From: a virus
Taxonomy: Duplodnaviria; Caudoviricetes
DNA: 29,186 bases
Reading direction: 5' to 3' (one strand)
Virus record (IMG/VR): IMGVR_UViG_3300037465_000028
Span: 1 to 29,186 of that record
Under the pieces are notes generated by a model that had not been told where the DNA came from, searched no databases, and saw only the letters and a list, made by a program, of their open reading frames with translations. Below, one piece after another: positions 1,339 to 24,447 of this stretch. The translations under genes and the position numbers were made by a program. The first letter of the stretch is position 1; every line of letters begins with the position of its first letter.

Positions 1339-2610
1339 TTATTTACCGACTTTTAGATACTTCTCCTTATTTTCCCTTAACTTATCATTTAACACAGTGC
1401 TTAATGTTTTTAGAAACTTTTGGTCGTCCTTAAACCATTCACCCATCTCTTTCGCCAAAAGCGCTGGTTCGTTCTTAATGTCAGCTTTTCCTTTTTCGCC
1501 ACCTCCCCCGGCGGGTTCAGTAGCGGTAAGAAGCTCATCAAAAACACCAACAATTTTTCCTAATGCTCCCACCAATTCTCCTAATTGGTCTTTCGCCTCT
1601 TTAATTAAGGTTCGGTTCTTCTCACTCAACACCCTGCCGACCTTTTCACTATCATCAACTTTAGCACTTTTACCCTTCGGCACGCAAACCATCTCCCCAT
1701 CCTCCCCCATCTCATATTCTCCCTCCTCACCCCCGTCAGTCGTGCAAGTAGCCCCAATCTTAGCAAAATCAACGCTTTTATGCTCGTCCACCCACGCCCT
1801 CGCCTTATCCACATCCCACTTTTCTTTATCAAACAAATACCTCTGCACCTCCACTCCTACCCCACATTTCCCGCCGCTAAATTCCCCTTTCTTGCATCCC
1901 ACAGTCGCCTTAATCCCCTTACTCTCGCTAATGCTAATCGTCCTAAAACTTTCTCCGTCAAAATAATCTGGGTCTTGAACCCGGATGATTATGTATTCCC
2001 CTTCCGTTTCCGGTTCCGGCTTATTCGTAGTCTCCGCTTTCTCCTCAACCATAATTCCTTTAGTCACAAATTCCCGCACTCCATCCGCACCCAATAAACT
2101 CACCGCTCTTGGGTTCGCAGGCACAGGCACAAAACTCCACTCCAGTAATTCCGCTTCAGTAATAATCGTGTCGTTCTTTTCGTCCCGCTTCCAAGGAATA
2201 AAACCAACGCTCGCCGTCCTCAAAATTCCCACATCATATAACCGCCTAACCTGCTGGGCAAGCGGGTTCGCTTCCCCGGGCGCAAAAAACCCTTCCGCAA
2301 AATATCCATTTCCTTCTTTCTGTATCTTCTCGGTCACTCCCATCGGCAATCCGTAATAATCGTGCGCCCACAACACCACCGGGTTCATCAAATAATTCTC
2401 AAACTTCCAAGCGTCAGCCCTAATCACCTCCCCCTGCCTGTCCAAATCTTCGGTGGTAATCAAAATCTTAAACCGCCCGTATTTATCCTTATCCTCCTCG
2501 CTCACTCCCTTAATGTTTGCTAAAAACTTCTGCGCCTGTTCGCCTTTCAGCGCCTCTAAAATCTTCTTCATTTCCTCCTCCGTAAACAGTTTTCTCAAAA
2601 CTTCATTCAT
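1339..2610 (-). CDS. HK97-family prohead protease with C-terminal extra and scaffold-like domains
   Basis: 423 aa; DLDRQGEVI, NPVVLWAHD, TASVGF and LLEWSFVPVPANP motifs; about 230 extra C-terminal residues including KVGRVLSEKN. Confidence 0.92.
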   Translation of the reverse strand: MNEVLRKLFTEEEMKKILEALKGEQAQKFLANIKGVSEEDKDKYGRFKILITTEDLDRQGEVIRADAWKFENYLMNPVVLWAHDYYGLPMGVTEKIQKEGNGYFAEGFFAPGEANPLAQQVRRLYDVGILRTASVGFIPWKRDEKNDTIITEAELLEWSFVPVPANPRAVSLLGADGVREFVTKGIMVEEKAETTNKPEPETEGEYIIIRVQDPDYFDGESFRTISISESKGIKATVGCKKGEFSGGKCGVGVEVQRYLFDKEKWDVDKARAWVDEHKSVDFAKIGATCTTDGGEEGEYEMGEDGEMVCVPKGKSAKVDDSEKVGRVLSEKNRTLIKEAKDQLGELVGALGKIVGVFDELLTATEPAGGGGEKGKADIKNEPALLAKEMGEWFKDDQKFLKTLSTVLNDKLRENKEKYLKVGK

Positions 2611-2616
2611 ACTTTT

Positions 2617-2625
2617 ATTATAGCA
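2617..2625 (-). promoter_or_regulatory. extended -10 promoter TGCTATAAT, probably giving a leaderless protease mRNA
   Basis: TGnTATAAT consensus with 6 nt between the -10 and the ATG at 2610. Confidence 0.65.
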
Positions 2626-2639
2626 TATTATATCAACCT

Positions 2640-2981
2640 TTACGACCTTGGAAGTTCCGGCAACACCTCAATAAAGATGTCCGGAAACGTTATAATCTGT
2701 GCACTCGTAAACGTAATCTCAATCTCCGCATAATGCCTTCCCGCCACGTCAAAATCCCCCGCCTGCACCGTATACTTCACCTTCCCCAGTGTCGCCCCCC
2801 CATCCAGCGCCATTGTTCCCGTAAATTTCAAAGCGGTGTCGCCCTGCTTCTGCACTTTCAATTTAATGCTCGTACTATTCGTCAAATCAAAAGCGGTGCC
2901 GTCCGCATTTTGGAGTGTAAACTTCAAATCCCCCAACTTGTCATTCTGCACCACCTTAATTTCCGTAGGTTGCGCCGCCAT
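2640..2981 (-). CDS. BppU-N-like (Ig-like) virion structural protein
   Basis: 113 aa; pattern of FTLQNADGTAFDLT, GKVKYTVQAGDFDVAG and EIEITF...TFP resembles BppU/DUF2479 N-terminal domains. Confidence 0.65.
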   Translation of the reverse strand: MAAQPTEIKVVQNDKLGDLKFTLQNADGTAFDLTNSTSIKLKVQKQGDTALKFTGTMALDGGATLGKVKYTVQAGDFDVAGRHYAEIEITFTSAQIITFPDIFIEVLPELPRS

Positions 2982-2982
2982 A

Positions 2983-5900
2983 CTATTTTTTCAGCTTTAA
3001 TATAATCTCCCTTCCGGTGTCGTCCCTTTTTTCTATTATAGCACTTTTCGGGTTCTTCAATGCAAATCCCACGGCGTTCAGCAAGAGGGTAAAAGCCCCC
3101 CATAGTCCCCTCAAAATCACCTGCCCCGCAGGATACACCGAGGTCACTATTCCGCTCCAAATCACCCTCGGAATATAGGCAAAAAATTCCTCCGCTACGC
3201 TTATAACCTCATTCAACAGCTTGCTAATGCTTCTAACTATATTATCCGCAATTACCACGTTTTCCGCAAATATCTTAGCCACAATCTTACCCGCAAACCC
3301 GTCTATAATCGTCAAAACCTCCCCAAAAACTTTAATGGGTTGTTTTGCCACGCTATCCACAACGCTCATTATCTCCCCAAACATCCTGCCCACTCTTTTT
3401 GCCAAAACATCCGCAATAACCACCGCCTCCTCCAACGTCTTAGTAAACTGGACGGTCAATTTCACCGCAGTCACGCTGTCCACTATTGACACCACCTCGC
3501 CAAATACCTTTCCGGCTTGCCTCAAAACACTATCAATCACAATTACCGCTTCATTCAAAACTTTCTGCGCCCCCCTACTCACGCTATCAATAACCACAAC
3601 CGCCTCCACAAATACTTTAGCGGTAATTTTCCCAATGCTATCCGTCAAAACTACCGCTTCATTCAGCACCCTTCCAAAAACATTATTCACCACATCCACA
3701 ATCACCACCACTTCGTTTAACGCTTTTCCTCCCTGCTTTATAACGCTGTCGGCAATTATGATTGCCTCACTCAATAACTTTCCTCCCTGCTTTACCAAAC
3801 CATCAACTACTATTACGCTTTCTCCAAAAATCTTCCCCACAATTTTAGCCGCCACACTATCTACCATCACCACGACCTCGTTAAAAGTTTTTTGCGCCTG
3901 TTTAAGCGCACTATCCACTATACTTACTACTTCGCTAAATATTCTTGCCCCGCTTTTTGAGACGCTATCCACCAACACAATAGTTTCATTCAACGCCTTC
4001 TGACCCTGTCTTATTAAACTATCTGCAATCACAATCACCTCCATAAAAACCCTGCCAAAAATGGTATTTATGGTATCCACAATTACCACCGCTTCACCTA
4101 AAGCCTTCCCCGTTTGACGAATTAAGGTATCGGCAATCACTACGGCTTCGCTAAATATTTTAATCCCCTGTTTCAATACAGTATCGGCAATTACCACCAC
4201 TTCATTAAAAATCCTAATCACGTCCCTCTTTACGCTATCCGCAATCACTATAACTTCTTCCAACGCTTTTTGAGGTTGCTTTAACAAACTATCAACCAAA
4301 ACCACCACATCGCTTAAAACCCTCCCTCCGTTTTTCACTATGCTATCCGCAATTATTATTGCCTCCTCTTTTATAATCGCCACTATCTTTACGCTCACGC
4401 TATCCACTAAAACCACCGTCTCATTAAGGGTCTTTTGCGCCTGCTTCAATGCGGTATCTACCACCACAATTACTTCATTAAAGGTTCTTATGGCATCCCG
4501 TTTCACGCTATCCACAATCGTTATAATCTCATTCAAAACCTTTTGGGGCTGCCCAACCAAAACATCTACTATTACAACGGTCTCGCTCAATACTTTTCCA
4601 AAAAGGTTTACAATCGTATCAACAATTATAATCGCTTCTGTCAATATCTTCTGTGGCTGTTTCAAAATCGTATCCATTAAAATCACCGCCTCGCTCAATG
4701 CCCTATTCACGCTCTTGACAACGCTATCCGCAATCACTATAACTTCTTCCTTAATAATTGCGGTAATCTTCGCCGCTATACTATCCACAACCAAAATCGC
4801 TTCGCTCAAATTTTTCTGCCCCTGTTTAATCACGCTATCAACCAATAAAATTGTCTCCGCCAATATCCTCTGCGGCGACTTTGCCACGCTATCCACAATC
4901 AAAGCCGCCTCCGACAGTGCTTTCCCCGTTTGCATAACTCTCAAATCAACCAAAACTATCGCCTCCAAATTCTCTCTCGTAAAATTACTCCCAGCAGGCG
5001 GCGTAAAATCCACAAAAATTCCGCACTCATACATAGTCACATCCTGCCCTCCGGTGCTCGTTTTATCTTCTCCAACCTGCAAACTATCAATGGAAGTTTT
5101 AGTCCACGCCCCGCCGCTTACCGGCCTCGTATTATATGCCTTGCTGTCCAAAAATTTACCCGTAGGTTGAGAAGCCATCCAAGTAAACTGCGAGCTTTCT
5201 TTTCCCACTCCGTTTACGGTGCTTGCGCTTCCTGCGGTTGCCCTTTCAAACAAACTCCAAAAGGTCACCGCATTTATCACATCACTTGCGCCAATCGGCG
5301 TGCTATCTTCCACATTAAACATCTCTTTCGCTGCGCTGGTGCCAGCGTGTCTGATATAATTCGTTTCATTCGGCGGTTCCTCATCAACCCTATTCCACCT
5401 ATTCGTCCCGCTCCCGCCCAGCGTATCCCAAGCATTAGCATCCCCCAACGCATTCGGTTTCAATAAAATCCCATTACTGCTCCCGTGATAAGCGTCATCC
5501 CTCACCACAAAATCATCAAAATAAAAAGTTATAGGTTGGCTATCCGCATTTGTAATCCCTCCCAAATTATAGTGGGTGATATTATTGCTCCCCGTATTCA
5601 ATCCCGTCCCCGTCTGCACATTCCCCCCATCCACCTTCATCTCCAACTCTCCAACAGTTGCGCTTATCACCAATTTCATCTCCACCCTATACCATACCCC
5701 CGGCGACACACTCACATTATTCCCAATCTGCACCGGAGTAGCAGGCACCACATTCCACAACTCCAAATGCCCGGTCGTTGCGCTATCCTGCTTAAACCTA
5801 ATCTCCGCAATATTCCCCAGCCCAGCATCCTCGGTCACTAAAATCTTATACTCATTCGGAAATCCGCTTCCGCCGTTATCCGCCCACCTAAACATAAACT

Positions 5901-6117
5901 TCACATATCCGGTAGATACGTTCGCAAAATTCCCCCTATGCACATTGGCGTAATCAAACGCCCCAAAATGAGCGTTAGCGTTCGCCGCCATATCCGCCCT
6001 AAAACTCCTATCTCCGCTATTCTTTACGGTCGTTTCCGAATTAAAAGTCCCCACAAACGCATTATCAAGCTCCCTCTTATCCCCCGTTTCAAATCCGCAA
6101 GCGAAATGAACAGCCAT
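2983..6117 (-). CDS. large fibre-like structural protein: N-terminal lectin/LamG-like domain(s) plus about 33 tandem 18-aa repeats
   Basis: 1044 aa; WYRVEMK...LEMKVDG...FYFDDFVV beta-sandwich-like N-terminus; repeat E-x-hhhh-D from about residue 385 to 975. Confidence 0.75.
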   Translation of the reverse strand: MAVHFACGFETGDKRELDNAFVGTFNSETTVKNSGDRSFRADMAANANAHFGAFDYANVHRGNFANVSTGYVKFMFRWADNGGSGFPNEYKILVTEDAGLGNIAEIRFKQDSATTGHLELWNVVPATPVQIGNNVSVSPGVWYRVEMKLVISATVGELEMKVDGGNVQTGTGLNTGSNNITHYNLGGITNADSQPITFYFDDFVVRDDAYHGSSNGILLKPNALGDANAWDTLGGSGTNRWNRVDEEPPNETNYIRHAGTSAAKEMFNVEDSTPIGASDVINAVTFWSLFERATAGSASTVNGVGKESSQFTWMASQPTGKFLDSKAYNTRPVSGGAWTKTSIDSLQVGEDKTSTGGQDVTMYECGIFVDFTPPAGSNFTRENLEAIVLVDLRVMQTGKALSEAALIVDSVAKSPQRILAETILLVDSVIKQGQKNLSEAILVVDSIAAKITAIIKEEVIVIADSVVKSVNRALSEAVILMDTILKQPQKILTEAIIIVDTIVNLFGKVLSETVVIVDVLVGQPQKVLNEIITIVDSVKRDAIRTFNEVIVVVDTALKQAQKTLNETVVLVDSVSVKIVAIIKEEAIIIADSIVKNGGRVLSDVVVLVDSLLKQPQKALEEVIVIADSVKRDVIRIFNEVVVIADTVLKQGIKIFSEAVVIADTLIRQTGKALGEAVVIVDTINTIFGRVFMEVIVIADSLIRQGQKALNETIVLVDSVSKSGARIFSEVVSIVDSALKQAQKTFNEVVVMVDSVAAKIVGKIFGESVIVVDGLVKQGGKLLSEAIIIADSVIKQGGKALNEVVVIVDVVNNVFGRVLNEAVVLTDSIGKITAKVFVEAVVVIDSVSRGAQKVLNEAVIVIDSVLRQAGKVFGEVVSIVDSVTAVKLTVQFTKTLEEAVVIADVLAKRVGRMFGEIMSVVDSVAKQPIKVFGEVLTIIDGFAGKIVAKIFAENVVIADNIVRSISKLLNEVISVAEEFFAYIPRVIWSGIVTSVYPAGQVILRGLWGAFTLLLNAVGFALKNPKSAIIEKRDDTGREIILKLKK
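3035..3043 (-). promoter_or_regulatory. extended -10 promoter TGCTATAAT inside the 3' end of the repeat gene, upstream of the BppU-like gene
   Basis: + strand attatagca, identical to the intergenic copies at 2617, 9484 and 14775. Confidence 0.45.
3187..4965 (-). repeat. degenerate coding tandem repeat, about 33 units of 54 nt (18 aa), four 19-aa units and one 23-aa unit
   Basis: Counted in the translation from EAIVLVD to EVISVAE; recurring + strand motif cgctatcc. Confidence 0.9.
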
Positions 6118-6123
6118 AATATT

Positions 6124-6300
6124 TTAATATTTACCTTTATCCACTATCTCATATCCCTTCGCCTCATAACTTTTAATCAAAGTATTCAAACCCTGCTGGC
6201 TGTCAATTTTCCCGGTCTCCAAAACAAATCCATTTTCATCCAAAACGGTATATCGCCACTCGCTCCCGCTAGCTTTTTTATAAATAAATTTTTTCCCCAT
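6124..6300 (-). CDS. hypothetical protein, 58 aa (absent from ORF track)
   Basis: Hand translation MGKKFIYKKASGSEWRYTVLDENGFVLETGKIDSQQGLNTLIKSYEAKGYEIVDKGKY*; fills the gap on the coding strand. Confidence 0.7.
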   Translation of the reverse strand: MGKKFIYKKASGSEWRYTVLDENGFVLETGKIDSQQGLNTLIKSYEAKGYEIVDKGKY

Positions 6301-6311
6301 ATCCTTAAAGC

Positions 6312-6341
6312 GAAAATAGGGGCGACAAAACCCCTATTTTC
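6312..6341 (-). terminator. 11-bp perfect hairpin, possible terminator or attenuator
   Basis: GAAAATAGGGG-8 nt-CCCCTATTTTC between the 195-aa and 58-aa genes. Confidence 0.55.
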
Positions 6342-6375
6342 AAACTATTTCATTGGGTTTCTCTAATTCAACTCA

Positions 6376-6963
6376 TTAGTCAACATCAAATTTCCAAGTC
6401 ACCTGCAAACTGTCTCCACTCACCACGTTAATTGCGCTAAATACCTGTCTCGCCAACAGCACCCCAGCCGACACCGCATTAAACGCTCCACTCTCGGTCA
6501 CCGCAAAGCTGGCTGTAAAATTAAAGGTCAAAACCAACTGCGCCGTGTCATTGGTAACGTCCGTAGTCACCCGGCTCGCCGTAGCCGCCGCCCTTGCACC
6601 TCCGCCAGTCGTAATCTCATTCCCCAAAGCGGTATCACCAGCAGCAGCCGCAGTCGTTCCCGTCCCGATAGCGATAAAGGTAAACGCCGCTTCTCCCCCC
6701 GCTCCGTTAATCCGGCTCGCCACCCCAGCCTTCCCAGCATCCACTACCAAATTGCTCAACCTAAAATTATTCGCCCAAAATCCAAACAGCAACGGAACCT
6801 TCGGCGCAAGCGGACTCATCCATCCCTTTCTAATCAGCCACAGCATTAAAGCGTTCGGCTGCCAAATCGGTTTCACATTCCCTTTTTTATCTCTCAAAAC
6901 AAAATCTATATTCTGCTTCAATTGGAACCTTCCCTTAACAAGTTTTTTAATTAGTGTGTTCAT
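6376..6963 (-). CDS. virion structural protein (fibre-associated family), paralogue of 26703..27263
   Basis: 195 aa; NLVVDAG, IAIGTGTTAAAAGDTAL, TESGAFN and INVVSGDSLQVTW motifs common in phage fibre/baseplate-associated proteins. Confidence 0.7.
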   Translation of the reverse strand: MNTLIKKLVKGRFQLKQNIDFVLRDKKGNVKPIWQPNALMLWLIRKGWMSPLAPKVPLLFGFWANNFRLSNLVVDAGKAGVASRINGAGGEAAFTFIAIGTGTTAAAAGDTALGNEITTGGGARAAATASRVTTDVTNDTAQLVLTFNFTASFAVTESGAFNAVSAGVLLARQVFSAINVVSGDSLQVTWKFDVD

Positions 6964-7250: not shown

Positions 7251-7288
7251 ATTTTGTAACTTAGTTTAGCCGACTTTCCGACCTTTTA

Positions 7289-7297
7289 AGTATAGCA
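7289..7297 (-). promoter_or_regulatory. extended -10 promoter TGCTATACT
   Basis: Intergenic, just after the portal stop and followed by AAAAGGTCGGAAAGTCGG. Confidence 0.55.
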
Positions 7298-7303
7298 CAA
7301 TCG

Positions 7304-9448
7304 TTATTCGCCGCCAATCTTCTCCGGCCTCACATAGCATCTGCAACGGGGGTGTAATGCGCCTCCCCACACATCATCATAATCCAATTGTAGCACACCA
7401 CCCTCTCCTCCCCTAACCAATGCTCCCTTCTTAAAAAACGGGTCATCCACGCTAATCTCCCTTCCGTTCATCGGTGCGCAAAACTGGCATACCCGCTCAT
7501 CTTCCGCAGTATACCACCTTACCGTCTCTACCACCCCGCTTTCCTTCATTCCCTCCCTAATCGCCAAATTCGCCACCCTAAACGTCTCTGTATCCGCCAC
7601 CATCTCCGCCCTGCCATCGCCCACGCTCCCCGCTATCTCCTCCTTCAGCTTTTCCCCAATATCCCTAATCCCTAACCCCTCCTCAATCCCCCTGCTAATC
7701 ACGCTTCGTATACTCTCAATACTCGTTGCGCTATAACTGTCCCCCAAATTCTGCAATTTCTCCGCCAACAACTTCCTCAACCTATCCGTCATCTTAAACG
7801 GCTCGCTAATCCCCAAACTATCCAAACTCGCCTGCGCCTCCTTTTCAAACAATTCAAACATTACCGGCCTGCTCACATCAATCACCAACTCCACCAATCC
7901 TTCGCCTTCGCCGCTCAACAAGTCCTTCGTGGTAATCCGACTCAATACTCTATTCTCGCTAATCAGGGTATCCAAATTCTCCTTCACTTCTTTCCACAGC
8001 TTTCCGTTCACTCCCTTTATCTTACTCTCCATCAGCTTCGTATACTTGCTCACCCTATTCACAAATGCTTTATGCCTCAACCCCTCCAAATCCAACCCGT
8101 CAATAACCTTCTTCACGCCATCCACAATATCCTGTTTCGTTTTATCCAATACTTCCCTCCTAAACATATAATTCTTTTTCAGCATTCTCTTACCCATCGC
8201 TACCGGCCTCCCGCCCTTCCCCTTCTCGGCTTTTTTCACCTCGCCCAACGCCTGCAAAGCGAAATTATAAAACACCACATCCCCGCCCTCTACTGGTTCC
8301 AATCCCTGCCCTTCTCTTACCTCATTCACCGTCATATATGGCGACGTCCCCAACCCAGCCGCAATCTTCTTTAATTCCAACTCTATATCTTCCGGCACGG
8401 GGCTTACAAAATCCAAAAACAAATCCTCCCCGTATCTCGGCACCAAAAATTCATTCAAACTGTCTACCAGCTTTTCCATCCTCGGCTTAATCGTCCTCAA
8501 CGCATACACGAAATTCGTGGCCTCCGCATTCGCCCTGTTCACCTCATCCGTAATCCCCAACCTTGTTCTCGGCACGCCGAACGCACTCAAAATCTTATTT
8601 TGAAATCTCTCGTCCAAAGTTCCGAAATCCATATCTTTCATATCACCCGCCAATTTCACCACCTCCAATCCCGCAGGTATCACCCCTATATTATGGGCGT
8701 TCGCAACCCCTTTATGTTCCTCTTTCCACTCCTCTTTTTTTCTCGTTACGTTAGCCGCTTGCGCCGGAAACTTGCTTTGCAACGCAAATTGCGGCACCGC
8801 ATTATTCTTAAAAAACGCCCTATTCCAATCCGTAGCGTTTATCTCCGCTTCAATCCATTCATACGCACCCTCCACGACGCTATACCCCTTCCTCGGATTA
8901 AACGGGTCGGTGTCCTTAAAATAAATCACACTCTCCGTCTCCAAATTTTTCTTAATCGCAACATTCTCCCCGCCTTCGCTATACGCCCAGCCCACAATCA
9001 TCCCGTCGTTGTCATACTTCGGTATCATTCCGTTCGGCATCAGCGGCAAAATCCTTTCTTTCCCTTTTTCCTTATTCAATTCCCAATATGCCTCTCCGAA
9101 AATATCCAAATGCTTGCTCCACAATTCCACTACATCCTTCTTCGTCATATTCTCATTCATCCCGTACAGCAAATCCAGCAATTCGTGGCTCTTTAATTCC
9201 TCCTCCACGTCTCCTTCGGCGCTCAAACGATACAGCTTGAACTCAATCGTTCCCACATCCTGCGCCCTCGCATTGACGCACGAAAACACCCATCCCCTAT
9301 ACAAATCCCTCAAATACGTTGCGCTCAATTTCCTTCTCCCCAAACTAAATCCGATAGTCGGCAAGCTAATCAAATTCACCCACTCCGCCTTCCCCGTAGG
9401 CACAAAAAACTTTCTATTCGCCCACCACCTTTTTACTGCTTCAAACAT
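7304..9448 (-). CDS. portal protein (HK97 type) fused to a Mu gpF/SPP1 gp7-like head morphogenesis domain
   Basis: 714 aa; portal motifs HLDIFGEAY, FFKNNAVP, ILSAFGVP, NRANAE, MTVNEVR; C-terminal WYTAEDERVCQFC and LHPRCRC. Confidence 0.9.
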   Translation of the reverse strand: MFEAVKRWWANRKFFVPTGKAEWVNLISLPTIGFSLGRRKLSATYLRDLYRGWVFSCVNARAQDVGTIEFKLYRLSAEGDVEEELKSHELLDLLYGMNENMTKKDVVELWSKHLDIFGEAYWELNKEKGKERILPLMPNGMIPKYDNDGMIVGWAYSEGGENVAIKKNLETESVIYFKDTDPFNPRKGYSVVEGAYEWIEAEINATDWNRAFFKNNAVPQFALQSKFPAQAANVTRKKEEWKEEHKGVANAHNIGVIPAGLEVVKLAGDMKDMDFGTLDERFQNKILSAFGVPRTRLGITDEVNRANAEATNFVYALRTIKPRMEKLVDSLNEFLVPRYGEDLFLDFVSPVPEDIELELKKIAAGLGTSPYMTVNEVREGQGLEPVEGGDVVFYNFALQALGEVKKAEKGKGGRPVAMGKRMLKKNYMFRREVLDKTKQDIVDGVKKVIDGLDLEGLRHKAFVNRVSKYTKLMESKIKGVNGKLWKEVKENLDTLISENRVLSRITTKDLLSGEGEGLVELVIDVSRPVMFELFEKEAQASLDSLGISEPFKMTDRLRKLLAEKLQNLGDSYSATSIESIRSVISRGIEEGLGIRDIGEKLKEEIAGSVGDGRAEMVADTETFRVANLAIREGMKESGVVETVRWYTAEDERVCQFCAPMNGREISVDDPFFKKGALVRGGEGGVLQLDYDDVWGGALHPRCRCYVRPEKIGGE

Positions 9449-9483
9449 ATTTCCTTTTCGTTTTAGCCAACGGCCTTTTAATT

Positions 9484-9492
9484 ATTATAGCA
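9484..9492 (-). promoter_or_regulatory. extended -10 promoter TGCTATAAT upstream of portal
   Basis: Consensus match in the TerL-portal intergenic region. Confidence 0.6.
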
Positions 9493-9501
9493 TACATCCT
9501 C

Positions 9502-11524: not shown

Positions 11525-11544
11525 ATCCCCTTCTAAGTTGGCGC

Positions 11545-12776: not shown

Positions 12777-13335
12777 TGCCTGTTATGTCTTTAATAAAAC
12801 TTTGCAGGCCGCCCTTTTCCTCAATAATCTTTTTCAGTTTCTCGTATGTTTCCGCCTCAATCTCGCCAGTTAAATCCCCAATCCTTACCCAACTATTTAT
12901 CGTCCCCAATGCGTAATCCTCAAATTCGTCATCTTGGTAGTCCTCAAAAAAAATATTCTTCTCAATATCCACTTCGCTAAACCCCACATCCTTCAACATA
13001 TCCTCGTCAAACTGCTTCAACAGTTCCCAGTCCCAATCGCCCAAATTCTTATTCAGTCGCAAATTCAATTCTTTTTCTTTCGCTTCATCCGGTATATTCA
13101 CATATACCACGGGTACCGTTTCCATCCCCAAATCCTTCGCAACCTTCAATCTAAAATGTCCTCCAATCACAATATTCCGCCTATTCTCTGCGGAATTTAC
13201 CAGTATCGGGTCTACCATCCCAAATCGCTTCACGCTCTCCGTCAAATCCCTCACGGCGTCCTCGCTCCACTTTCTCGGATTATAAGGGGCTGGGTTTAAT
13301 TCGCTTATTTTTACCTCCGTAATCTCCTTTGCCAT
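12766..13335 (-). CDS. ParB/Srx N-terminal domain protein
   Basis: 189 aa; LNPAPYNPRK, SVKRFGMVDPILV, IGGHFRL, LNLRLNK; usual ParB-MTase-terminase synteny. Confidence 0.88.
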   Translation of the reverse strand: MAKEITEVKISELNPAPYNPRKWSEDAVRDLTESVKRFGMVDPILVNSAENRRNIVIGGHFRLKVAKDLGMETVPVVYVNIPDEAKEKELNLRLNKNLGDWDWELLKQFDEDMLKDVGFSEVDIEKNIFFEDYQDDEFEDYALGTINSWVRIGDLTGEIEAETYEKLKKIIEEKGGLQSFIKDITGNGE

Positions 13336-13348
13336 AATCTTTTTGGAG

Positions 13349-13370: not shown

Positions 13371-13604
13371 TTAAAAATTCAATTTCACGCTCGCTCGCTC
13401 TTTCTCCTTCCCGCCAACCACTCGCACCAAACTCCTAATGGCATTCGCTACTTCTCCTTTCCTCCCAATCACCGCACCCCTATCCTTCTCCCCCACATCC
13501 ACCACATACAAAGTTCCCCGCTCATCAACCTTCCGCTCCACCCGCACGGCGTCCGGCTCGTCCACAATTCCCCTTATTACTGCTTCAATGTATTCTTTAA
13601 CCAT
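13371..13604 (-). CDS. khpA: KhpA/YlqC-like single KH-domain RNA-binding protein, 77 aa
   Basis: MVKEYIEAVIRGIVDEPDAV...DRGAVIGRKGEVANAIRSLV; GxxG loop and length match the UPF0109 family; start moved to ATG at 13604. Confidence 0.88.
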   Translation of the reverse strand: MVKEYIEAVIRGIVDEPDAVRVERKVDERGTLYVVDVGEKDRGAVIGRKGEVANAIRSLVRVVGGKEKERASVKLNF

Positions 13605-13608
13605 AATT

Positions 13609-13989: not shown

Positions 13990-14003
13990 AATCTCAATAT
14001 ATC

Positions 14004-14447: not shown

Positions 14448-14449
14448 AG

Positions 14450-14728: not shown

Positions 14729-14774
14729 TTTTTAATTTATCTTCCTAATTCCGACCTTTCATAATCTCCTTTCC

Positions 14775-14783
14775 ATTATAGCA
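14775..14783 (-). promoter_or_regulatory. extended -10 promoter TGCTATAAT upstream of the holin-like gene
   Basis: Intergenic consensus match. Confidence 0.6.
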
Positions 14784-14786
14784 TAT

Positions 14787-15454: not shown

Positions 15455-15555
15455 TTTCTTTTACAATCTCCGCAAGTTTTTTCGCCCTTTTTCTTGCTCC
15501 GCTTCTGGCGGTGGCACTTCTCGCAAGTAAATTTCTCCTTTTTATTACTGCTCAT
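15451..15555 (-). CDS. 34-aa basic CxxC...CxxC zinc-finger peptide (absent from ORF track)
   Basis: MSSNKKEKFTCEKCHRQKRSKKKGEKTCGDCKRK*; ATGA overlaps with both neighbours. Confidence 0.7.
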   Translation of the reverse strand: MSSNKKEKFTCEKCHRQKRSKKKGEKTCGDCKRK

Positions 15556-16723: not shown

Positions 16724-16724
16724 A

Positions 16725-17009: not shown

Positions 17010-17010
17010 T

Positions 17011-18473: not shown

Positions 18474-19122
18474 TTATTTTTTTATCAATTAACTCCGTTA
18501 ATTCGGCCTTTTGTTTTTCCCCAAATGTAGAGGCAATAATCTTCTCTTTCCATTGCCTCAAAATATCCACGCTCTCCTGCGTCCCAATCATCGCCTTCGT
18601 CTTATCAAACGCCGCCTCCTTGCTCATCCCTTTTTCCTTCGGTTTCCCATCCTCCAATTTCCCCACCCGCTCCAACTCTTTCCAATATACATCCAGCGCA
18701 ATCCCAAACAAGCTGGCGCATTTTTTCAGCGCATCGCTCGCCGCCGCTTTCAGCGTGTCCCCAATCGGAATTTCAGGGTATCTGTCGTGGTTTCCATACT
18801 GCCCCTTCGTAATGCTAAACCCCTTCTTGTGGTCTTTAATCGTCAATTCTCCATACACCGCCACGCTCTTATCCAAAAGAGTTTCCCGCAATACTTGAAA
18901 ATTCCAATTCACCGCTCCAAAAATCTCGTTCAATCTCGCTATCACATATCCCACCTCAACATAATCCGCTTCCTTCTTCCCCCTCACCACCCGCCGCTTT
19001 ATAAACTCCTTCGGCGTAGCCACAAATATCTTCTGCTTTTGCTCCGGCGCCAAGTCCAGCTGGCTCAACACCAACGCCCTACTCTCAACCTTTTTTATTT
19101 TCTTAATCTTTTTCTTTGCCAT
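18433..19122 (-). CDS. Rad52/Sak-like single-strand annealing protein
   Basis: DYVEVGYVIARLNEIFGAVNWNF and LKAAASDALKKCASLFGIALDVY; start moved to ATG 19122 (AAGATT context). Confidence 0.88.
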   Translation of the reverse strand: MAKKKIKKIKKVESRALVLSQLDLAPEQKQKIFVATPKEFIKRRVVRGKKEADYVEVGYVIARLNEIFGAVNWNFQVLRETLLDKSVAVYGELTIKDHKKGFSITKGQYGNHDRYPEIPIGDTLKAAASDALKKCASLFGIALDVYWKELERVGKLEDGKPKEKGMSKEAAFDKTKAMIGTQESVDILRQWKEKIIASTFGEKQKAELTELIDKKINEQEQKAKSGTLL

Positions 19123-19132
19123 AATCTTTTTA

Positions 19133-19750
19133 TTATTCTCCGGTTGCCCGACCCGCAACCGTTTTTACTTCCCTAACCTCAATTCCGGCTATCGCTACTC
19201 CGGCCAATGCGACCCTTCTAATTCTCACCATATCCGGCACCAAATACTCTCTCGGTATCTCCTTCTCATTGACGATAAACACTTCCCTCCGAATTACAAA
19301 TGTCGCCTTTCCCACCTTGCTCTCAATCGTTTTATCCACTTTCTTTTCCTCTAATGCCTCAACTTTCTTTGCGCCCGTCTCAAATTTCATCGTTCCCTTA
19401 TCCACCTTATCGGCAATTTTCGCTTCCTGCGCCAACCTTTCCTTCTCCTCTTTATTGCTAAATTCAATCATCGCTTTTTTAATCTTCCCCTCCGCCTCAA
19501 CCAGCTTATTCTCATAAGGCGCAAAAAAAGCACGAGCGTTCGCCAATGCTTCATTCAACGGCCTCACAATACTCCCTTTCGCTTCTACAATCTTTTTCTG
19601 CGCCGCCTTAATAATCCCCAAAAAGTCGGTCGCCTTCTCTAACCCGTCTTTGTCGGCAATCTTAATTTCCTCGCTCCGGCGCACCACCAATCTAACTTCT
19701 TTTTCTATTTCCTCCCTTATTTCAGGAGAAATCGCAATTTTGTTTTCCAT
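19133..19750 (-). CDS. coiled-coil protein with Gp157-like C-terminus, recombination module
   Basis: 205 aa; long heptad region, then IPREYLVPD...IAGIEV. Confidence 0.6.
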   Translation of the reverse strand: MENKIAISPEIREEIEKEVRLVVRRSEEIKIADKDGLEKATDFLGIIKAAQKKIVEAKGSIVRPLNEALANARAFFAPYENKLVEAEGKIKKAMIEFSNKEEKERLAQEAKIADKVDKGTMKFETGAKKVEALEEKKVDKTIESKVGKATFVIRREVFIVNEKEIPREYLVPDMVRIRRVALAGVAIAGIEVREVKTVAGRATGE

Positions 19751-19813
19751 AATCTTTTTAATTGTTTATCTTAACCTTTTTATCTTATCACATCCTCATA
19801 TAACTATAAGCAA

Positions 19814-19824
19814 GTTATCCACAG
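19814..19824. promoter_or_regulatory. DnaA box (TTATCCACA) upstream of the recombination operon
   Basis: Intergenic GTTATCCACAG, with a possible extended -10 TGATAAGAT at 19790-19782. Confidence 0.55.
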
Positions 19825-19826
19825 CC

Positions 19827-20042
19827 CTATTTCTTCACACGTCCCTTCCAAAATTCCTTCAAAAACCTATCCACATTCTCTCTCGGAATGTAATATCTCT
19901 TTCCTTTGCCTTTCCCCAAAACCCTCGGCTTGAAAACGTGCTTATATCTTTTTACAAAATCCCTTAACGCCGGATAGCTTTTAGGCAACGGTTTCGGCAA
20001 CAGCTTTCCTATATCTTTTAATTTAATCAGTTCTCCGTTCAT
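19827..20042 (-). CDS. small basic DNA-binding protein, excisionase/HTH-like
   Basis: 71 aa; LKDIGKLL...KRYYIPRENVDRFL pattern. Confidence 0.55.
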   Translation of the reverse strand: MNGELIKLKDIGKLLPKPLPKSYPALRDFVKRYKHVFKPRVLGKGKGKRYYIPRENVDRFLKEFWKGRVKK

Positions 20043-20079
20043 ATCTTTATTTTACCTTACTTTAATCGCCCTTTATCTT

Positions 20080-20109
20080 ACCCTATCATATTACATCCCC
20101 AAGCGTCAA
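20080..20109 (-). promoter_or_regulatory. possible sigma70-type promoter TTGACG-N18-TAGGGT with extended TG
   Basis: Good -35 and weak -10 in an intergenic gap; DnaA box at 20118-20126 just upstream. Confidence 0.4.
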
Positions 20110-20110
20110 A

Positions 20111-20311
20111 CTACAACTTATCCACAAACAGCCCAACTACCGGCCTATACAGCACCTTCACCGCCTCCGTCATCAAATCGCCCCCACAATACCCCAATCC
20201 GTGCGTCCTCTCGTATTCCACGCACCCCATCATCAACACCAGCCATAAGGCGAAAAACACCACATACCCAACCACAAACCACCCTAAAACTATCCCAATT
20301 TTTTTAACCAT
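20111..20311 (-). CDS. small membrane protein, 66 aa
   Basis: N-terminal transmembrane segment and a Cys pair. Confidence 0.7.
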   Translation of the reverse strand: MVKKIGIVLGWFVVGYVVFFALWLVLMMGCVEYERTHGLGYCGGDLMTEAVKVLYRPVVGLFVDKL

Positions 20312-20326
20312 AATCTTATTTTATCT

Positions 20327-20524
20327 TTATTCGGCCTTTAACTCCAACCCCAGTATCTCATAGCATTTCGCTATCTCCCCGCTATCCCCGTATTTCAAGC
20401 TCTCAACCCTCCCGATACATTCCTCAAATTTCTTCTCGTTCCAATCCTCAATCAATGCTCCCAAAAACGACAGCACCAACAATCCAATCAGCACAAAACC
20501 GACTATCCATTGCCACTTTTTCAT
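20327..20524 (-). CDS. small membrane protein, 65 aa
   Basis: N-terminal transmembrane segment and a Cys pair. Confidence 0.7.
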   Translation of the reverse strand: MKKWQWIVGFVLIGLLVLSFLGALIEDWNEKKFEECIGRVESLKYGDSGEIAKCYEILGLELKAE

Positions 20525-20525
20525 T

Positions 20526-20732
20526 TTACAAATCCATTACCCATAATTCTCCGACCTTTCTAAATCCGCCCACCACTATATCAAATTTTGGGCTTCCTTC
20601 CTCCTGTTCAACCAACTCTACTTCGCTGCTCAATAGGTGTTTCCTTGCTTCACGTAGCGCTCCGTCAAGATTATCCACCTCGGTAGTGTATGACCTTTTC
20701 CCCCGTCCCACATTAACCAATCTTATCTTCAT
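20526..20732 (-). CDS. hypothetical protein, 68 aa
   Basis: Packed ORF on the coding strand. Confidence 0.7.
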   Translation of the reverse strand: MKIRLVNVGRGKRSYTTEVDNLDGALREARKHLLSSEVELVEQEEGSPKFDIVVGGFRKVGELWVMDL

Positions 20733-20923
20733 TTTAATTTTAGGTTTAGCTTATATTCCTTAATCGCCCTTTCAAGTCGCCACTTATAATCCTTATCTCT
20801 CTCAAACAATTCACTAATCTCTAAGTCGTCGGCGCAATCCATACACACCCCGCTATAATCGTGCCTTATTGTTTTCCCACATTTCTTACAGGGTATTCCC
20901 TGCACAATTCCTAAACTTTTCAT
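20729..20923 (-). CDS. CxxC...CxxC zinc-finger protein, 64 aa
   Basis: CKKC and CMDC motifs. Confidence 0.7.
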   Translation of the reverse strand: MKSLGIVQGIPCKKCGKTIRHDYSGVCMDCADDLEISELFERDKDYKWRLERAIKEYKLNLKLK

Positions 20924-20939
20924 AATCTTAATTCTTAAC

Positions 20940-21590
20940 TTATTTTCGTCCCTTTGTTTGGTTCACGTTAAAGTAATTCACCAGTCCGCCATACAACGCT
21001 TCCACCTCCTGCGGCGTTCTCGTCCCCGCCAAATACATCTGCGCCTCTTGGTCGTTCGTGATGTAATACGCCTCGGTCAATGCGCTCACCAAATGCCCAT
21101 ATACAGTCACCCCAAATCCTCCTTTCAAATATCCTTCATCCGGCAACCCCAGCCCCGCAATCAAACTGTCGTGTAATGCGGTAGCCAACAGCACATCTTG
21201 TTTCTCGTTATAAATCACCAGCGTCCCGTCGTGGCTCGGGTCGCTATTCCCGTTATGGTGGACGGACACAATCACATCGCATTTCCTCCCCGCCAACGCT
21301 TGGCACTTGCTCACCGCAATATCAATCCTTTCCTTCCTGCTGCTAATCGTCTCATCTCCCTCACGGGTCAAAACCACCAACGCCCCATCCGCCTCCAACC
21401 TGCTCTTTAACGCCAACACCACATTCAAATTCACATCCTTCTCCGCCACTCCATAGGCGGTATTTACTGCGCCCGTTTCCGTCCCTCCGTGTCCGGCATC
21501 CAGCGCAATCAGCTTTCCGGTTACGGAGGTAGCCGCTGCTACTTGGCTGGCTAAAGCCAGCCCGATTAAACCAACCAATAATTTTTTCAT
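20940..21590 (-). CDS. secreted N-acetylmuramoyl-L-alanine amidase (Amidase_3)
   Basis: 216 aa; Sec-type signal MKKLLVGLIGLALASQVAA; LDAGHGG, AEKD, SVHHN and LTEAYY Zn/catalytic motifs intact. Confidence 0.92.
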   Translation of the reverse strand: MKKLLVGLIGLALASQVAAATSVTGKLIALDAGHGGTETGAVNTAYGVAEKDVNLNVVLALKSRLEADGALVVLTREGDETISSRKERIDIAVSKCQALAGRKCDVIVSVHHNGNSDPSHDGTLVIYNEKQDVLLATALHDSLIAGLGLPDEGYLKGGFGVTVYGHLVSALTEAYYITNDQEAQMYLAGTRTPQEVEALYGGLVNYFNVNQTKGRK

Positions 21591-21601
21591 TGTTTTGTTT
21601 T

Positions 21602-21751
21602 TTAATTTTTTTCTTCTTCAACTGATACGACCCTAAATCCCTTCTTCCAAATAAACTCAACCCACTCCTCTGCCTTCACCCTATCGGTAAATCTCGCATT
21701 CTGCTCCCCTCCCGAACCGTCTATCCACTTAACCACCCATATTTTCTCCAT
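21602..21751 (-). CDS. hypothetical protein, 49 aa (absent from ORF track)
   Basis: MEKIWVVKWIDGSGGEQNARFTDRVKAEEWVEFIWKKGFRVVSVEEEKN*; fills the gap between the HExxH gene and the amidase. Confidence 0.65.
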   Translation of the reverse strand: MEKIWVVKWIDGSGGEQNARFTDRVKAEEWVEFIWKKGFRVVSVEEEKN

Positions 21752-22316
21752 TTTGGTTTTGAGGCGCACCCAACGCCTTCTCGTAATACCGCACCTTTCT
21801 CAACCATTTCGCATATAGCGTCCTCGCTCTTTTCATTCTCGTCTCCGCCTTCGCCAAATTTATTCTCGCCAATTCATACCGCCTCGTTTTCACATCAATC
21901 ATTTTCTTCGCTATCACCTTCTCCCCAATCGGGTATCGCTCATCGCTAATAGCCGCCTTAATCCAATCAATATACCATTCCTCAATCGTGTCTCCGCTTT
22001 TCTTATGTCTCACTCCCAAGCAATGCCCCAATTCGTGGATAAAGGTTTCCGCTACGGACTGGCTAAACTCCAAACTATGCTTCCCGTATTTTCTTTCCTT
22101 CTCAATCACCCTCGGCAACTTCATCGCCACAAAAGTAGAATGGTAGTAGGCGTATCCACCAATCCACCATCCGCCTCTGTTATATCTTACCTTCACATTC
22201 ACGCCCCTCCCAATCTCCCAACGCTTTCCTTCGTCCCTTCTTACCCTCGCCGCACACAGCGCAAATATCTTCCGCAAATTCTTCGTCTCATATTTAGTTG
22301 TATTCTCAACCTTCAT
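21729..22316 (-). CDS. zincin-like HExxH metallopeptidase-domain protein with basic helical C-terminus
   Basis: 195 aa; FIHELGHCLGVRH. Confidence 0.7.
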   Translation of the reverse strand: MKVENTTKYETKNLRKIFALCAARVRRDEGKRWEIGRGVNVKVRYNRGGWWIGGYAYYHSTFVAMKLPRVIEKERKYGKHSLEFSQSVAETFIHELGHCLGVRHKKSGDTIEEWYIDWIKAAISDERYPIGEKVIAKKMIDVKTRRYELARINLAKAETRMKRARTLYAKWLRKVRYYEKALGAPQNQNGENMGG

Positions 22317-22495
22317 AATCTTATTGCTCTTATCCTAATCTCTTTTATTCGCCGACCTTTGTTTTCTTTCCTAAACTTCCTCACCACCTTCCCAATAGCA
22401 GAACTCAAATTGCCTTCCGCTATTTCCCCATCCCTATTCGGCCATTCCTTCGGGTAGGGGTCGTCCCACGACAATCTCACTAAATATTTATTCAT
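22313..22495 (-). CDS. hypothetical protein, 60 aa
   Basis: First gene after the strong promoter; ATGA overlap downstream. Confidence 0.7.
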   Translation of the reverse strand: MNKYLVRLSWDDPYPKEWPNRDGEIAEGNLSSAIGKVVRKFRKENKGRRIKEIRIRAIRL

Positions 22496-22540
22496 ACATT
22501 TTACCTTAATCTTAACGACCTTTTAATCTTATCTATGTAG

Positions 22541-22569
22541 ATGATACACCCGTTTTTAACTCCTGTCAA
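22541..22569 (-). promoter_or_regulatory. near-consensus sigma70/sigmaA promoter TTGACA-N17-TATCAT
   Basis: + strand tgtcaa 22564-22569 and atgata 22541-22546, 17-nt spacer. Confidence 0.85.
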
Positions 22570-22626
22570 GAACACACAAGTCCTTACATCATCCATTTTA
22601 CCCCAAAAACCCAATGAAACAACCGA

Positions 22627-22637
22627 GTTATCCACAG
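22627..22637. promoter_or_regulatory. DnaA box (TTATCCACA) upstream of the strong early promoter
   Basis: Intergenic GTTATCCACAG, identical to the 19814 copy. Confidence 0.55.
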
Positions 22638-22955
22638 CTACTGCCCAAACATCCTCTCCACATCTTTAATCCCATACGCCACCGCATAAACCCCTCCCGC
22701 TTCCTCAAATCCTTTCCCCCATTCTCTCTGCGCTTCGGTTGCTTCATTCCCCTCCACCTTACATTCAATTCCGTAAATCCTCCCGTCCTTCACGGCAAAA
22801 ACATCAGGGCTCCCCACATCCCCAAATTTATAAAAATGGCTTCCCCTCGTAAACCCTCCCGTATTATTCCGCCAGCAAAATATCCGCTTCACCCTCAAAT
22901 ACTCCAACACGCTCCATACTACATCCTTCTCTTTTAATTTCTGCCCCATAATCAC
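22638..22955 (-). CDS. VRR-NUC domain nuclease
   Basis: 105 aa; WRNNTG, GSPD, IECK and QREW motifs. Confidence 0.88.
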   Translation of the reverse strand: MIMGQKLKEKDVVWSVLEYLRVKRIFCWRNNTGGFTRGSHFYKFGDVGSPDVFAVKDGRIYGIECKVEGNEATEAQREWGKGFEEAGGVYAVAYGIKDVERMFGQ

Positions 22956-23050
22956 TTTTTACTCACCCGCTCTTTCTCGCAAAAATAGCAGGGCTTATTT
23001 TTATTCCTTTGGTTGTGCTTCTTACAAACCCTTATCCGGTGTTTTTTCAT
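22952..23050 (-). CDS. 32-aa basic CxxH...CxxC peptide (absent from ORF track)
   Basis: MKKHRIRVCKKHNQRNKNKPCYFCEKERVSKK*; GTGA overlap with VRR-NUC. Confidence 0.55.
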   Translation of the reverse strand: MKKHRIRVCKKHNQRNKNKPCYFCEKERVSKK

Positions 23051-23105
23051 ATCATTATGGTATAATCATTCTAGCCCTCTAACAACCCCGCAGGACTTCC
23101 GCAAA

Positions 23106-23211
23106 GCCCTTCCCGCAACAGGAAGGCATAAGGAGAAGCAACAACCCATCAGCGCACCTAAGCTGGCGCACATCCTCACGGATGATAAACGGGGTTTCGT
23201 TGCTTCTCCTT
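23106..23211. ncRNA. structured non-coding element (three-way junction plus hairpin) at the 3' end of the replication initiator gene
   Basis: 13-bp perfect stem 23130-23142 with 23199-23211 enclosing two hairpins; extra hairpin 23106-23127. Confidence 0.55.
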
Positions 23212-23218
23212 TTCTTTT

Positions 23219-24028
23219 TCATCTCATTCTTCTTTCCTCCGCCGCCGCTTCCTCCTGTAAATTACTCCTTTCCTCCGGCGACAATCCGAAATTCTTAAAT
23301 AGTCCTTTTTTCATATCCGATAATTTTTTTAATACTTCCTTCCTTTTTATTTCGTTTTCAAAATCAGGCAGTATCCGGTAATACAATTTCGCCAAACTCA
23401 ATCTCCCCTCTCTCCAATAATAAAAATATTGCTTATTGTGTTGTTCCCACGCCCACATAATCGCCCGTCTTATAAACTCCACATCCGGCCATTTCTTCCT
23501 AATCATTTTAGGATATTTATTTCTATCCAATCCTTTATCTCTTGGGTTCTCCCCGGTGGTTTCCTTATAGGCCAAAAAGAAGTTATTAACCCAGTTTTGA
23601 GGTTCGCTCCCTAACGGAGTTATATTCTTTGTACTATTCTCCTCTGTATTATTATGCGGTGCCTTTCCACCCCTACCCGTCAGTTCTTTTCCACCCCGAC
23701 CGTCGGGGTGTTTCCGCCCCCACCCCCCGTTCACCACCCTAATTACCCGCCTATCCAAATTATCCGCCTCCTTATTCAATTCCACTACAATCCTCCCTTT
23801 CTTTTTCAGGTTTATAATCACCCGCTTCGCTCTATCCGCACTCACATTAAAAAAAGCACCAAAATATTCGTTGGTGGCAAAACACCCATCCTCGTTATCC
23901 AAGCTATCTATCTCAACCAAAAAAACCTTTTCCTGTAAACTTAAATTTTCGTCCAACCAAATTTCTTTCGGTATCCAAACTCCCTTAAACGCCCTTTTCA
24001 CTTTATCTATTCCTTTTTCCTTAATCAT
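23219..24028 (-). CDS. phage replication initiator (N-terminal HTH)
   Basis: 269 aa; FKGVWIPKEIWLDENLSLQEK...IDSLDNEDGCFATNEYF typical of phage initiators; Gly-rich repeated linker followed by NNTEENSTKN. Confidence 0.82.
   Translation of the reverse strand: MIKEKGIDKVKRAFKGVWIPKEIWLDENLSLQEKVFLVEIDSLDNEDGCFATNEYFGAFFNVSADRAKRVIINLKKKGRIVVELNKEADNLDRRVIRVVNGGWGRKHPDGRGGKELTGRGGKAPHNNTEENSTKNITPLGSEPQNWVNNFFLAYKETTGENPRDKGLDRNKYPKMIRKKWPDVEFIRRAIMWAWEQHNKQYFYYWREGRLSLAKLYYRILPDFENEIKRKEVLKKLSDMKKGLFKNFGLSPEERSNLQEEAAAEERRMR
23664..23730. repeat. iteron-like repeats within the initiator gene, candidate origin
   Basis: TTTCCRCCCC at 23664, 23688 and 23711; palindrome CACCCCGAC-C-GTCGGGGTG 23692-23710; AT-rich tract about 23620-23655. 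Confidence 0.6.
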
Positions 24029-24062
24029 TTTTTGATGGTATCAAACCAACCATCTGGGTAAA

Positions 24063-24087
24063 GTGGATAACCTGTTAATTATCCACA
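24063..24087. promoter_or_regulatory. inverted pair of DnaA-box-like sites upstream of the initiator
   Basis: GTGGATAA-8 nt-TTATCCACA. Confidence 0.6.
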
Positions 24088-24105
24088 CCTCTTATATGAA
24101 ACTTA

Positions 24106-24206
24106 TGGACTTCCAACCCGTTATATGTTATGATAACCCAAAGCAAAAATGCCTCCCAGCTTTTTCTACCCCCGTATATCCAAACACAGGTCGGGGGTCT
24201 TTTTTT
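24106..24206 (+). ncRNA. candidate antisense small RNA unit (promoter, about 65-nt RNA, terminator)
   Basis: TGGACT-N17-TATGAT with extended TG (24106-24134); stem ACCCCCG/CGGGGGT 24168-24198 followed by C and T7. Confidence 0.5.
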
Positions 24207-24219
24207 GCCTAAAACAGCC

Positions 24220-24408
24220 CTATTCAGCCCCTCCGCCGTCCTCTCCGGCTCCTTTCTCACCCCTTTCCCCCCCGGCCTCGCCTGCCTCAATTTTAGCCAC
24301 TTTATCGCCTAATCCAGCGGCTTCCTCATCCGTAAGCTCAATCTCCTCCCCGGCGTTGGCTCGCTTCTCTCCCACCTCCACGTCCTCTAACGCTTTATAT
24401 TTCGCCAT
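24220..24408 (-). CDS. small acidic protein, 62 aa
   Basis: MAKYKALEDV...GEEIELTDEEAAGL; resembles the 48-aa ORF at 25490. Confidence 0.7.
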   Translation of the reverse strand: MAKYKALEDVEVGEKRANAGEEIELTDEEAAGLGDKVAKIEAGEAGGERGEKGAGEDGGGAE

Positions 24409-24447
24409 ACCAGTAAAACTCTTTTGGTTAATGCCGACCTTTCACCC

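Follow-up and report, generated by a model that had tools for sequence, protein, structure and literature searches.

The window analyzed here is the whole 29,186-nucleotide (nt) stretch of IMG/VR virus record IMGVR_UViG_3300037465_000028, a 29-kb tailed-phage contig with capsid, head protease, portal, terminase, tail, and lysis genes. All window genes are on the minus strand, which is G-rich. Our subject is a short leader word, AAAGGTCG, that recurs with its variants upstream of the start codons of these genes. An earlier, model-made reading of the letters alone, the sequence-only reading, had described the word as a leader signal at starts lacking Shine–Dalgarno (SD) sites, and its coordinates and spacings for exact and variant copies were all reproduced. 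From the window's list of open reading frames (ORFs), 43 ATG starts were curated; AAAGGTCG or a variant marks 21 of the 43 by a broader pattern, which missed the GGGTCG at 19149.

There are seven exact copies of AAAGGTCG in the window, all on the minus (coding) strand, as are all features given below, and none on the plus strand. In six of the seven, the distance to an ATG is 20–36 nt. These are the copies at 7279–7286 (28 nt before ATG 7250, with a TGCTATACT −10-like box ending 2 nt earlier), 14752–14759 (23 nt before ATG 14728 and 15 nt after TGCTATAAT), 20552–20559 (27 nt before ATG 20524), 22353–22360 (36 nt before ATG 22316, at an ATGA overlap), 22516–22523 (20 nt before ATG 22495), and 24435–24442 (26 nt before ATG 24408). 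The copies serving 20524 and 22316 lie within the upstream gene, and ATG 7250 has a second copy, AAAGTCG, at 7271–7277, 20 nt away. The seventh, at 1638–1645, is within the head-protease gene with no start nearby, and is indeed the single unlinked copy noticed earlier.

The variants are as follows. AAAAGTCG at 1347–1354, in the protease gene's final codons, is 23 nt before the major capsid ATG at 1323, and CAAGGTCG at 2643–2650 is 32 nt before the protease ATG at 2610. AAAGGGACG is found at 3021–3029 (39 nt before ATG 2981), and AAAGGGACG(A) at 20947–20955, in the amidase gene's final codons (23 nt before ATG 20923). AAAGGCCG is at 9471–9478, 22 nt before the portal ATG at 9448 and 5 nt after TGCTATAAT; AAAGGCCG(A) is at 18504–18511 (30 nt before ATG 18473) and, in the upstream gene's final codons, at 20332–20339 (20 nt before ATG 20311). 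AAAGGGCG occurs at 12810–12817 (33 nt before ATG 12776), and AAAGGGCG(A) at 15483–15490 (28 nt before ATG 15454), 20067–20074 (24 nt before ATG 20042), and 20765–20772 (32 nt before ATG 20732). The remaining variants are GGGTCG at 19149–19154 (26 nt before ATG 19122), AGGGTCG at 21628–21634 (37 nt before the amidase ATG at 21590), AAAGGTCA at 27288–27295 (24 nt before ATG 27263), and the weak variant AAAGGTTA at 19772–19779 (21 nt before ATG 19750). Six spacers end in AAGATT-ATG (starts 13335, 19122, 19750, 20311, 20923, and 22316), as the sequence-only reading had it.

The placement of the word is far from random. Six of the seven exact copies end 15–40 nt before one of the 43 starts, versus 0.27 expected (p ~ 2 × 10^−8), and for AAGG[TCG]CG the figure is 14 of 27 versus 1.0 (p ~ 2 × 10^−13). 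The top hexamers between −45 and −15 of the window starts are AAAGGT, AAGGTC, and AGGTCG. Copies had been said to be built into the last codons of upstream genes, and this is borne out: the motif lies entirely within upstream coding sequence for 10 genes, versus a mean of 0.74 (maximum 5) in 2000 synonymous shuffles of the gene ends, so the enrichment over a codon-shuffled background that the sequence-only reading had called for is present. Since every gene is on this G-rich strand, strand bias alone is weak evidence, and the result depends on the positional and codon-shuffle tests.

The near absence of GGAGG close to starts also stands. It occurs 3–14 nt before none of the 43 window starts, and GGAG or GAGG before two. 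The motif itself is at this SD-like distance in none of the 43 genes, being seen 20–37 nt away instead. The energy of the duplex with the anti-SD (aSD) is −1.6 kcal/mol near true starts versus −4.3 kcal/mol at internal ATGs, and 33 of the 43 starts have A at −3. The word, then, is not a Shine–Dalgarno signal: it lacks both complementarity to a 3′-terminal CCUCCU and the 5–10 nt spacing. No Rfam family was found in the window at the gathering score.

The same word is found in other phages. Of 240 loci from two pattern scans of IMG/VR, 15 have at least three AAGGTCG leaders, and removing duplicates leaves 12 contigs. Since these contigs were chosen by the motif, the counts that follow describe its shape and not its prevalence. 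Their 260 leaders hold 60 copies of the exact word (0.8 expected), at a spacing of 15–44 nt, mostly 19–27 nt, and SD-like words are nearly absent. The single changes tolerated, AAAGGTCA (11), AAAGGTCT (6), AAAGGTTG (5), and AAAAGTCG (4), amount to loss of a terminal pair or to C>U, a G wobble; none is at the second G. For several window proteins, the best local matches come from the 12 contigs. The relatives of the terminase in IMG/VR are mostly SD users and were uninformative.

A clue to the host comes from the phage KhpA gene (PF13083) at 13371–13604, whose own leader lacks the motif. Of the fetched loci, the 45 that best match the phage KhpA are all Patescibacteria, save one viral contig, and the top match is in genome G198. 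The order of Patescibacteria that includes G198 is thus the likely host group, judging from this protein resemblance, and we infer that it corresponds to the Parcubacteria subgroup without an aSD that Tsurumaki et al. (PMC9297842) describe. Patescibacteria, and ribosomal-protein genes above all, had been named as the place to look for the word. The expectation holds for this one order: in its 121 genomes, there are 1104 matches versus 546 for reversed controls, with 89 genomes above control and 23 below. It fails for the phylum, as no genome-wide excess was seen across 301 Patescibacteria genomes (tallies that include the unpublished genome G157, for which nothing is claimed separately), and we reject phylum-wide use in favor of a subset. 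A subset of the 301 has phage-like leaders before khpA and before genes which we take, from their N-termini, to encode HU, superoxide dismutase (SOD), Hsp20, pilin, and similar proteins. HU leaders have few motif matches. In 480 kb of genome G332, about 20 of 556 ORFs carry the motif, including rplL, groES, ssb, and khpA. Nor does the expectation extend to ribosomal-protein genes in general, since the motif is in the rplL leader of G332 but the exact form is in none of the rplL leaders of five other aSD-less genomes; rplL was accordingly of no use as a covariation marker.

Further observations concern khpA itself. G198 has two khpA genes (C1:78562 and C5:5835), both motif-bearing. A KhpA-like ORF that inspection suggested in L345 failed confirmation by tblastn. 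In Patescibacteria, khpA is often 1–5 kb upstream of a 16S gene (for example, in G256:C6, G195:C1, G208:C1, G136:C39, G039:C16, G273:C4, and G244:C8), hinting at a role in rRNA handling.

What in the host might read such a word? CCUCC is missing from 69 of 70 16S tails in the G198 order (four spurious rows having been dropped from the count), and most other Patescibacteria keep the aSD. According to the excerpted text of PMC9297842, only 48% of Parcubacteria have an aSD. Aside from the G198 order, aSD-less or partly aSD-less tails were seen in G181, G259, G287, G164, G055, and G273, and G055 has a variant loop of helix 26 (h26). The sequence-only reading had supposed a non-canonical signal read by host rRNA, a ribosomal protein, or the phage KhpA. 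The rRNA part of this proposal gains support, with a partner different from the one first sought: CGACCUUU is absent from five 16S and five 23S loci, and we rejected it. CGACC, in contrast, has two sites in 16S rRNA, one that folds into a stem and one in h26. The h26 tip is predicted to fold as an open loop of 7–8 nt ending in UCGACC, the exact complement of GGUCGA. In the order, all 61 true h26 rows among the matches listed (8 further matches lie outside that listing) read AG-U-N-UCGACC-CU, with covariation in the remainder of the stem. The AAA of the motif has no Watson–Crick partner in register with the loop. Invasion of the h26 stem by the AAA was rejected, as the 3′ strand of the stem varies (CUUUC, CUUCA, CUGUC, CUAUC, CUGCA) and AAAGG is constant.

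Independent evidence about the loop is provided by the pre-16S 3′ trailer. In the G198 order, a conserved GUCGAC-like word lies between hairpins directly past the 16S 3′ end. Trailers were analyzed in 60 genomes, those whose fetched region had no h26 or tail being dropped. Among 21 variant-loop genomes, with 12 distinct loop cores, 18 have trailers with at least 6 nt of Watson–Crick complementarity to their own loop, and just one matches the canonical loop. The mean complement is 6.9 nt for the own loop versus 4.4 nt for the loops of other variants (p = 2 × 10^−4, 5000 permutations). Base by base, a loop G is met by C or U in the trailer, A mostly by U (G049 and G256 are exceptions), and C by G in G339. 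Loop/trailer pairs include UCGGUC/GACCGA, AGUCAACC/GGUUGACU, AAUCAAUC/GAUUGAUU, CAUAGAUC/GAUCUAU, and UAUCAGUC/GACUGGUA. Because the trailer complement tracks each genome's own h26 loop, it is likely, on this covariation, that the loop pairs with RNA in nature. The presence of this complement in the trailer is new here. Among 12 bacteria from outside the phylum, four show this loop type (a Dehalococcoidia member, Patulibacter, an actinomycete metagenome-assembled genome, and Leptolyngbya), and all four have the complement in the trailer; therefore, the loop/trailer pair predates the mRNA motif. Tips differ in the remaining eight, although in four of these the script chose the wrong hairpin.

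Two other assignments of the trailer word were rejected: it is not part of the leader–trailer helix, which begins some 80–100 nt further on, and pairing with a nearby GUUG fails in G339, G370, G347, and G198. Rfam had no family at the gathering score for the G330 trailer. RNA-run contigs checked for the mature 16S 3′ end came mostly from other organisms. Trailers of the G198 order (L572, L573, L576–L578, L582, L589–L592, L599, and L678–L706) also contain a covarying H-type pseudoknot, after the h26-complementary word and a hairpin and adjoining the leader–trailer helix on its 5′ side. An example is AAGGUGU/ACACCUU with GGUCGAG/CUCGACC and an A-rich loop; no Rfam family matches this pseudoknot at the gathering score. 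Patescibacteria that retain the aSD have its complement after it, as CUCCU-UUCU-A(A/G)GGAG, a trailer SD mimic with apparent compensatory changes in G034, G150, G217, G110, and G202.

On the mRNA side, khpA leaders link the word to the loop. GGTCG is present 15–75 nt upstream of khpA in 22 of 41 genomes with the UCGACC loop versus 1 of 28 with a variant loop (Fisher p = 6 × 10^−6), among 69 of 70 genomes, G175 having no khpA match. The base after GGTCG is A in 10 of 18 host sites and G in 32 of 62 phage sites, versus 5% G in spacers. A phage G at +1 keeps a G–U pair, as expected if GGUCG pairs with the loop. The preference for G has a ready context: TCGA is absent from the window (34.9 expected), presumably by avoidance of restriction by a host enzyme for TCGA, and therefore the window uses the variants GGTCGG, GGGCGA, and GGCCGA. 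In the window, A follows the GGGCG, GGCCG, and GGACG variants in seven of nine cases, another route to avoiding TCGA, for which the predicted penalty is about 5 kcal/mol. Depletion of TCGA extends to several other phages with the motif.

Drawing on the observed motif and spacing, the aSD loss, the 6-nt complementarity, and the loop/trailer covariation, we consider it probable that AAAGGUCG(A/G), 20–40 nt before starts, pairs with the N-N-UCGACC loop of h26 and thereby tethers the 30S subunit in place of an SD in this aSD-less order. Several points weigh against this proposal. The host order is itself deduced, and the phage KhpA favors G198 by less than 2 bits. The UCGACC loop is far commoner than heavy use of the motif, and trailer pairing alone accounts for the loop. 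The central variants GGGCG and GGCCG give predicted duplexes about 5 kcal/mol weaker, and by eye there is no pairing signal past +1. The 15–75 nt window for khpA was chosen after inspection of the data, and the genomes compared are related. The complement of the own loop is found in none of the 28 variant-loop khpA leaders, and own-loop hexamers in about 640 leaders of variant lineages are not clearly enriched (7 versus 3.9 expected in the largest class); a doubled AAGGTTGA before rpsM in G110 is one suggestive leader. The mRNA data thus show co-loss of motif and loop, not compensation.

The strongest competitor, which we nonetheless regard as unlikely, is that a host RNA-binding protein, either KhpA or one of the ribosomal proteins, binds the word and so enhances or autoregulates translation, the h26 match being incidental or due to a protein with a second role in handling the trailer. 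It is before khpA that the motif is most consistent, khpA often adjoins the 16S gene, and KhpA is encoded by the phage and by viral contigs L409 and L369; a protein would also suit the invariant AAA without a Watson–Crick partner and the loose spacing in hosts, 15–70 nt. Yet KhpA is in 70 of 70 Patescibacteria searched, whereas the motif before khpA tracks the h26 loop; the trailer word changes as the loop does, whereas a fixed protein site would stay the same; and the phage khpA leader is motif-free. This distribution argues against KhpA as the specific binder, so that this part of the sequence-only reading is weakened. Less probable again is pairing with h26 as a standby or 5′-end protecting site, in which a 30S subunit held near the transcript end would stabilize or preload the mRNA and would not position the start. 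The broad spacing is in keeping with such a site, as are several copies 0–5 nt after −10-like boxes, and so at a likely 5′ end, but in 10 genes the motif is within the upstream coding sequence of an operon, and the A/U-rich spacer, which runs up to the ATG, has its peak length in phages at 19–27 nt.

That the word acts at the DNA level, as part of a promoter or transcription start, is very improbable. Five or six of 21 window copies do lie at most 5 nt after TGNTATAAT/TAAGAT-like boxes, and two precede a TATAAT sited 6 nt before the ATG. A sigma70 promoter element would keep a fixed distance to the −10 box or start; here, the distances to the ATG and to −10 boxes vary, many copies are in coding ends that lack a −10 box, sigma70-type sites between 12000 and 25000 are as many as chance would give (18 versus 18.9), and the complementarity to h26 would be left unexplained. 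We give equally little credence to the idea that a 16S 3′ tail left extended and unprocessed provides the partner in its palindromic GUCGAC, a displaced anti-SD in place of h26. In many aSD-less genomes, the trailer word is some 16–20 unpaired nt past the normal anti-SD position, near the extra spacing. However, it is 40–120 nt out in many genomes, it varies (GUUGAC, GUCGAU, GUCGAG) while the mRNA motif stays AAGGTCG, as in G339, and it tracks the h26 loop instead.

Pairing of the word with the h26 loop, the reading that we prefer, may be pictured as follows. In the immature subunit, the trailer would pair with the h26 loop, and its removal at maturation would free the loop. The mRNA GGUCG(A/G) would then pair with the freed loop and stack on the h26 stem, making an H-type pseudoknot in trans, a form that we propose because of the order of the elements and the fixed AG/CU closing pairs. 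General pseudoknot geometry places a strand in the minor groove of such a stem; the AAA possibly docks there, the stem sequence varying and the AAA being constant. The unstructured, A/U-rich spacer of 20–40 nt would run through the exit channel to the P site. This would strengthen initiation at a few per cent of host genes (groES, rplL, ssb, HU, SOD, Hsp20, pilin, and khpA) and at a third to half of the genes of this phage, including internal cistrons, where reinitiation may also be aided.

Two further features of the window deserve mention. Extended −10 boxes (TGCTATAAT-like) at 2617–2625, 7289–7297, 9484–9492, and 14775–14783, and also before 2981 and 27263, precede several late genes; two, before 2610 and 27263, sit 6 nt before the ATG, a leaderless arrangement. 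The segment 2983–6117 encodes a 1044-amino-acid (aa) protein with an N-terminal domain matching phrog_2448, followed by a long stretch of degenerate repeats, each about 38 aa, of the form V/I-V-I-D-S-V-x-K-Q-x-x-K.

The proposed system resembles known ones in part. As with SD/anti-SD pairing, a short purine-rich leader word is predicted to pair with 16S rRNA upstream of the start, highly expressed genes and phages are enriched for it, and the rRNA site is apparently masked by a mimic in the precursor trailer, as in the CCUCCU-UUCU-A(A/G)GGAG hairpins of aSD-retaining Patescibacteria. It differs in sequence, in spacing (20–40 versus 5–10 nt), in its predicted partner, the h26 loop and not the 3′ tail, and in hosts without CCUCC. 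In caliciviruses and influenza B, motif 1 of the termination upstream ribosome-binding site (TURBS) pairs with the 18S h26 loop near the mRNA exit, according to the excerpted texts of PMC5972666 and PMC3542737. Here too an mRNA word is complementary to the h26 apical loop (GGUCGA versus UCGACC), a loop predicted to be single-stranded and having a covarying trailer complement. Unlike TURBS, the word is bacterial, reads GGUCG and not UGGGA, has no motif 2/2* hairpin, and is used by cellular genes too; it stands in intergenic leaders (39–142 nt gap to the upstream stop) and before first genes of transcripts, and so is not limited to termination–reinitiation. Strictly defined, with a UGGGA core, the 2/2* hairpin, termination dependence, and a eukaryotic 40S subunit, TURBS is a different element. 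SD-independent initiation in Bacteroidia, as the available portion of PMC13000453 describes it, shares the absence of SD, the A/U-rich start context, and A at −3, but there the aSD is kept and sequestered by bS21, bS18, and bS6, whereas here the loss of the aSD goes with a distinct word upstream of starts. The pre-16S leader–trailer helix of PMC10250234 likewise gives the trailer a structural role in 30S biogenesis, to judge from the portion available, and such a helix is predicted here; the present trailer word, in contrast, lies 5′ of that helix and complements the h26 loop within the mature rRNA, and that paper mentions neither h26 nor helix 26. A literature search that left most subscription papers outside its reach found no description of the motif, of bacterial mRNA–h26 pairing, or of h26–trailer pairing.

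These results suggest a concrete and testable answer to two points in the part of PMC9297842 consulted, namely the existence of aSD-less Parcubacteria and the conserved h26 in Parcubacteria, whose role is described there as unknown. We lean, with some reserve, toward the broader proposal that a whole order of Patescibacteria and its phages may have replaced the SD by a second mRNA–16S code, AAAGGUCGA on the h26 loop. This code would have co-opted an older trailer-pairing loop, also present in Chloroflexota, Actinomycetota, and a cyanobacterium, with the trailer gating the docking of mRNA until maturation. If true, it would be the bacterial counterpart of the viral TURBS–h26 tether and a natural orthogonal ribosome-binding system, and h26–trailer pairing, with its multi-site covariation, would be a candidate new step in 30S maturation. 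AAAGGTCG leaders without SD may also be of use as a marker, both in linking phages to these uncultured hosts and in improving the calling of start codons.

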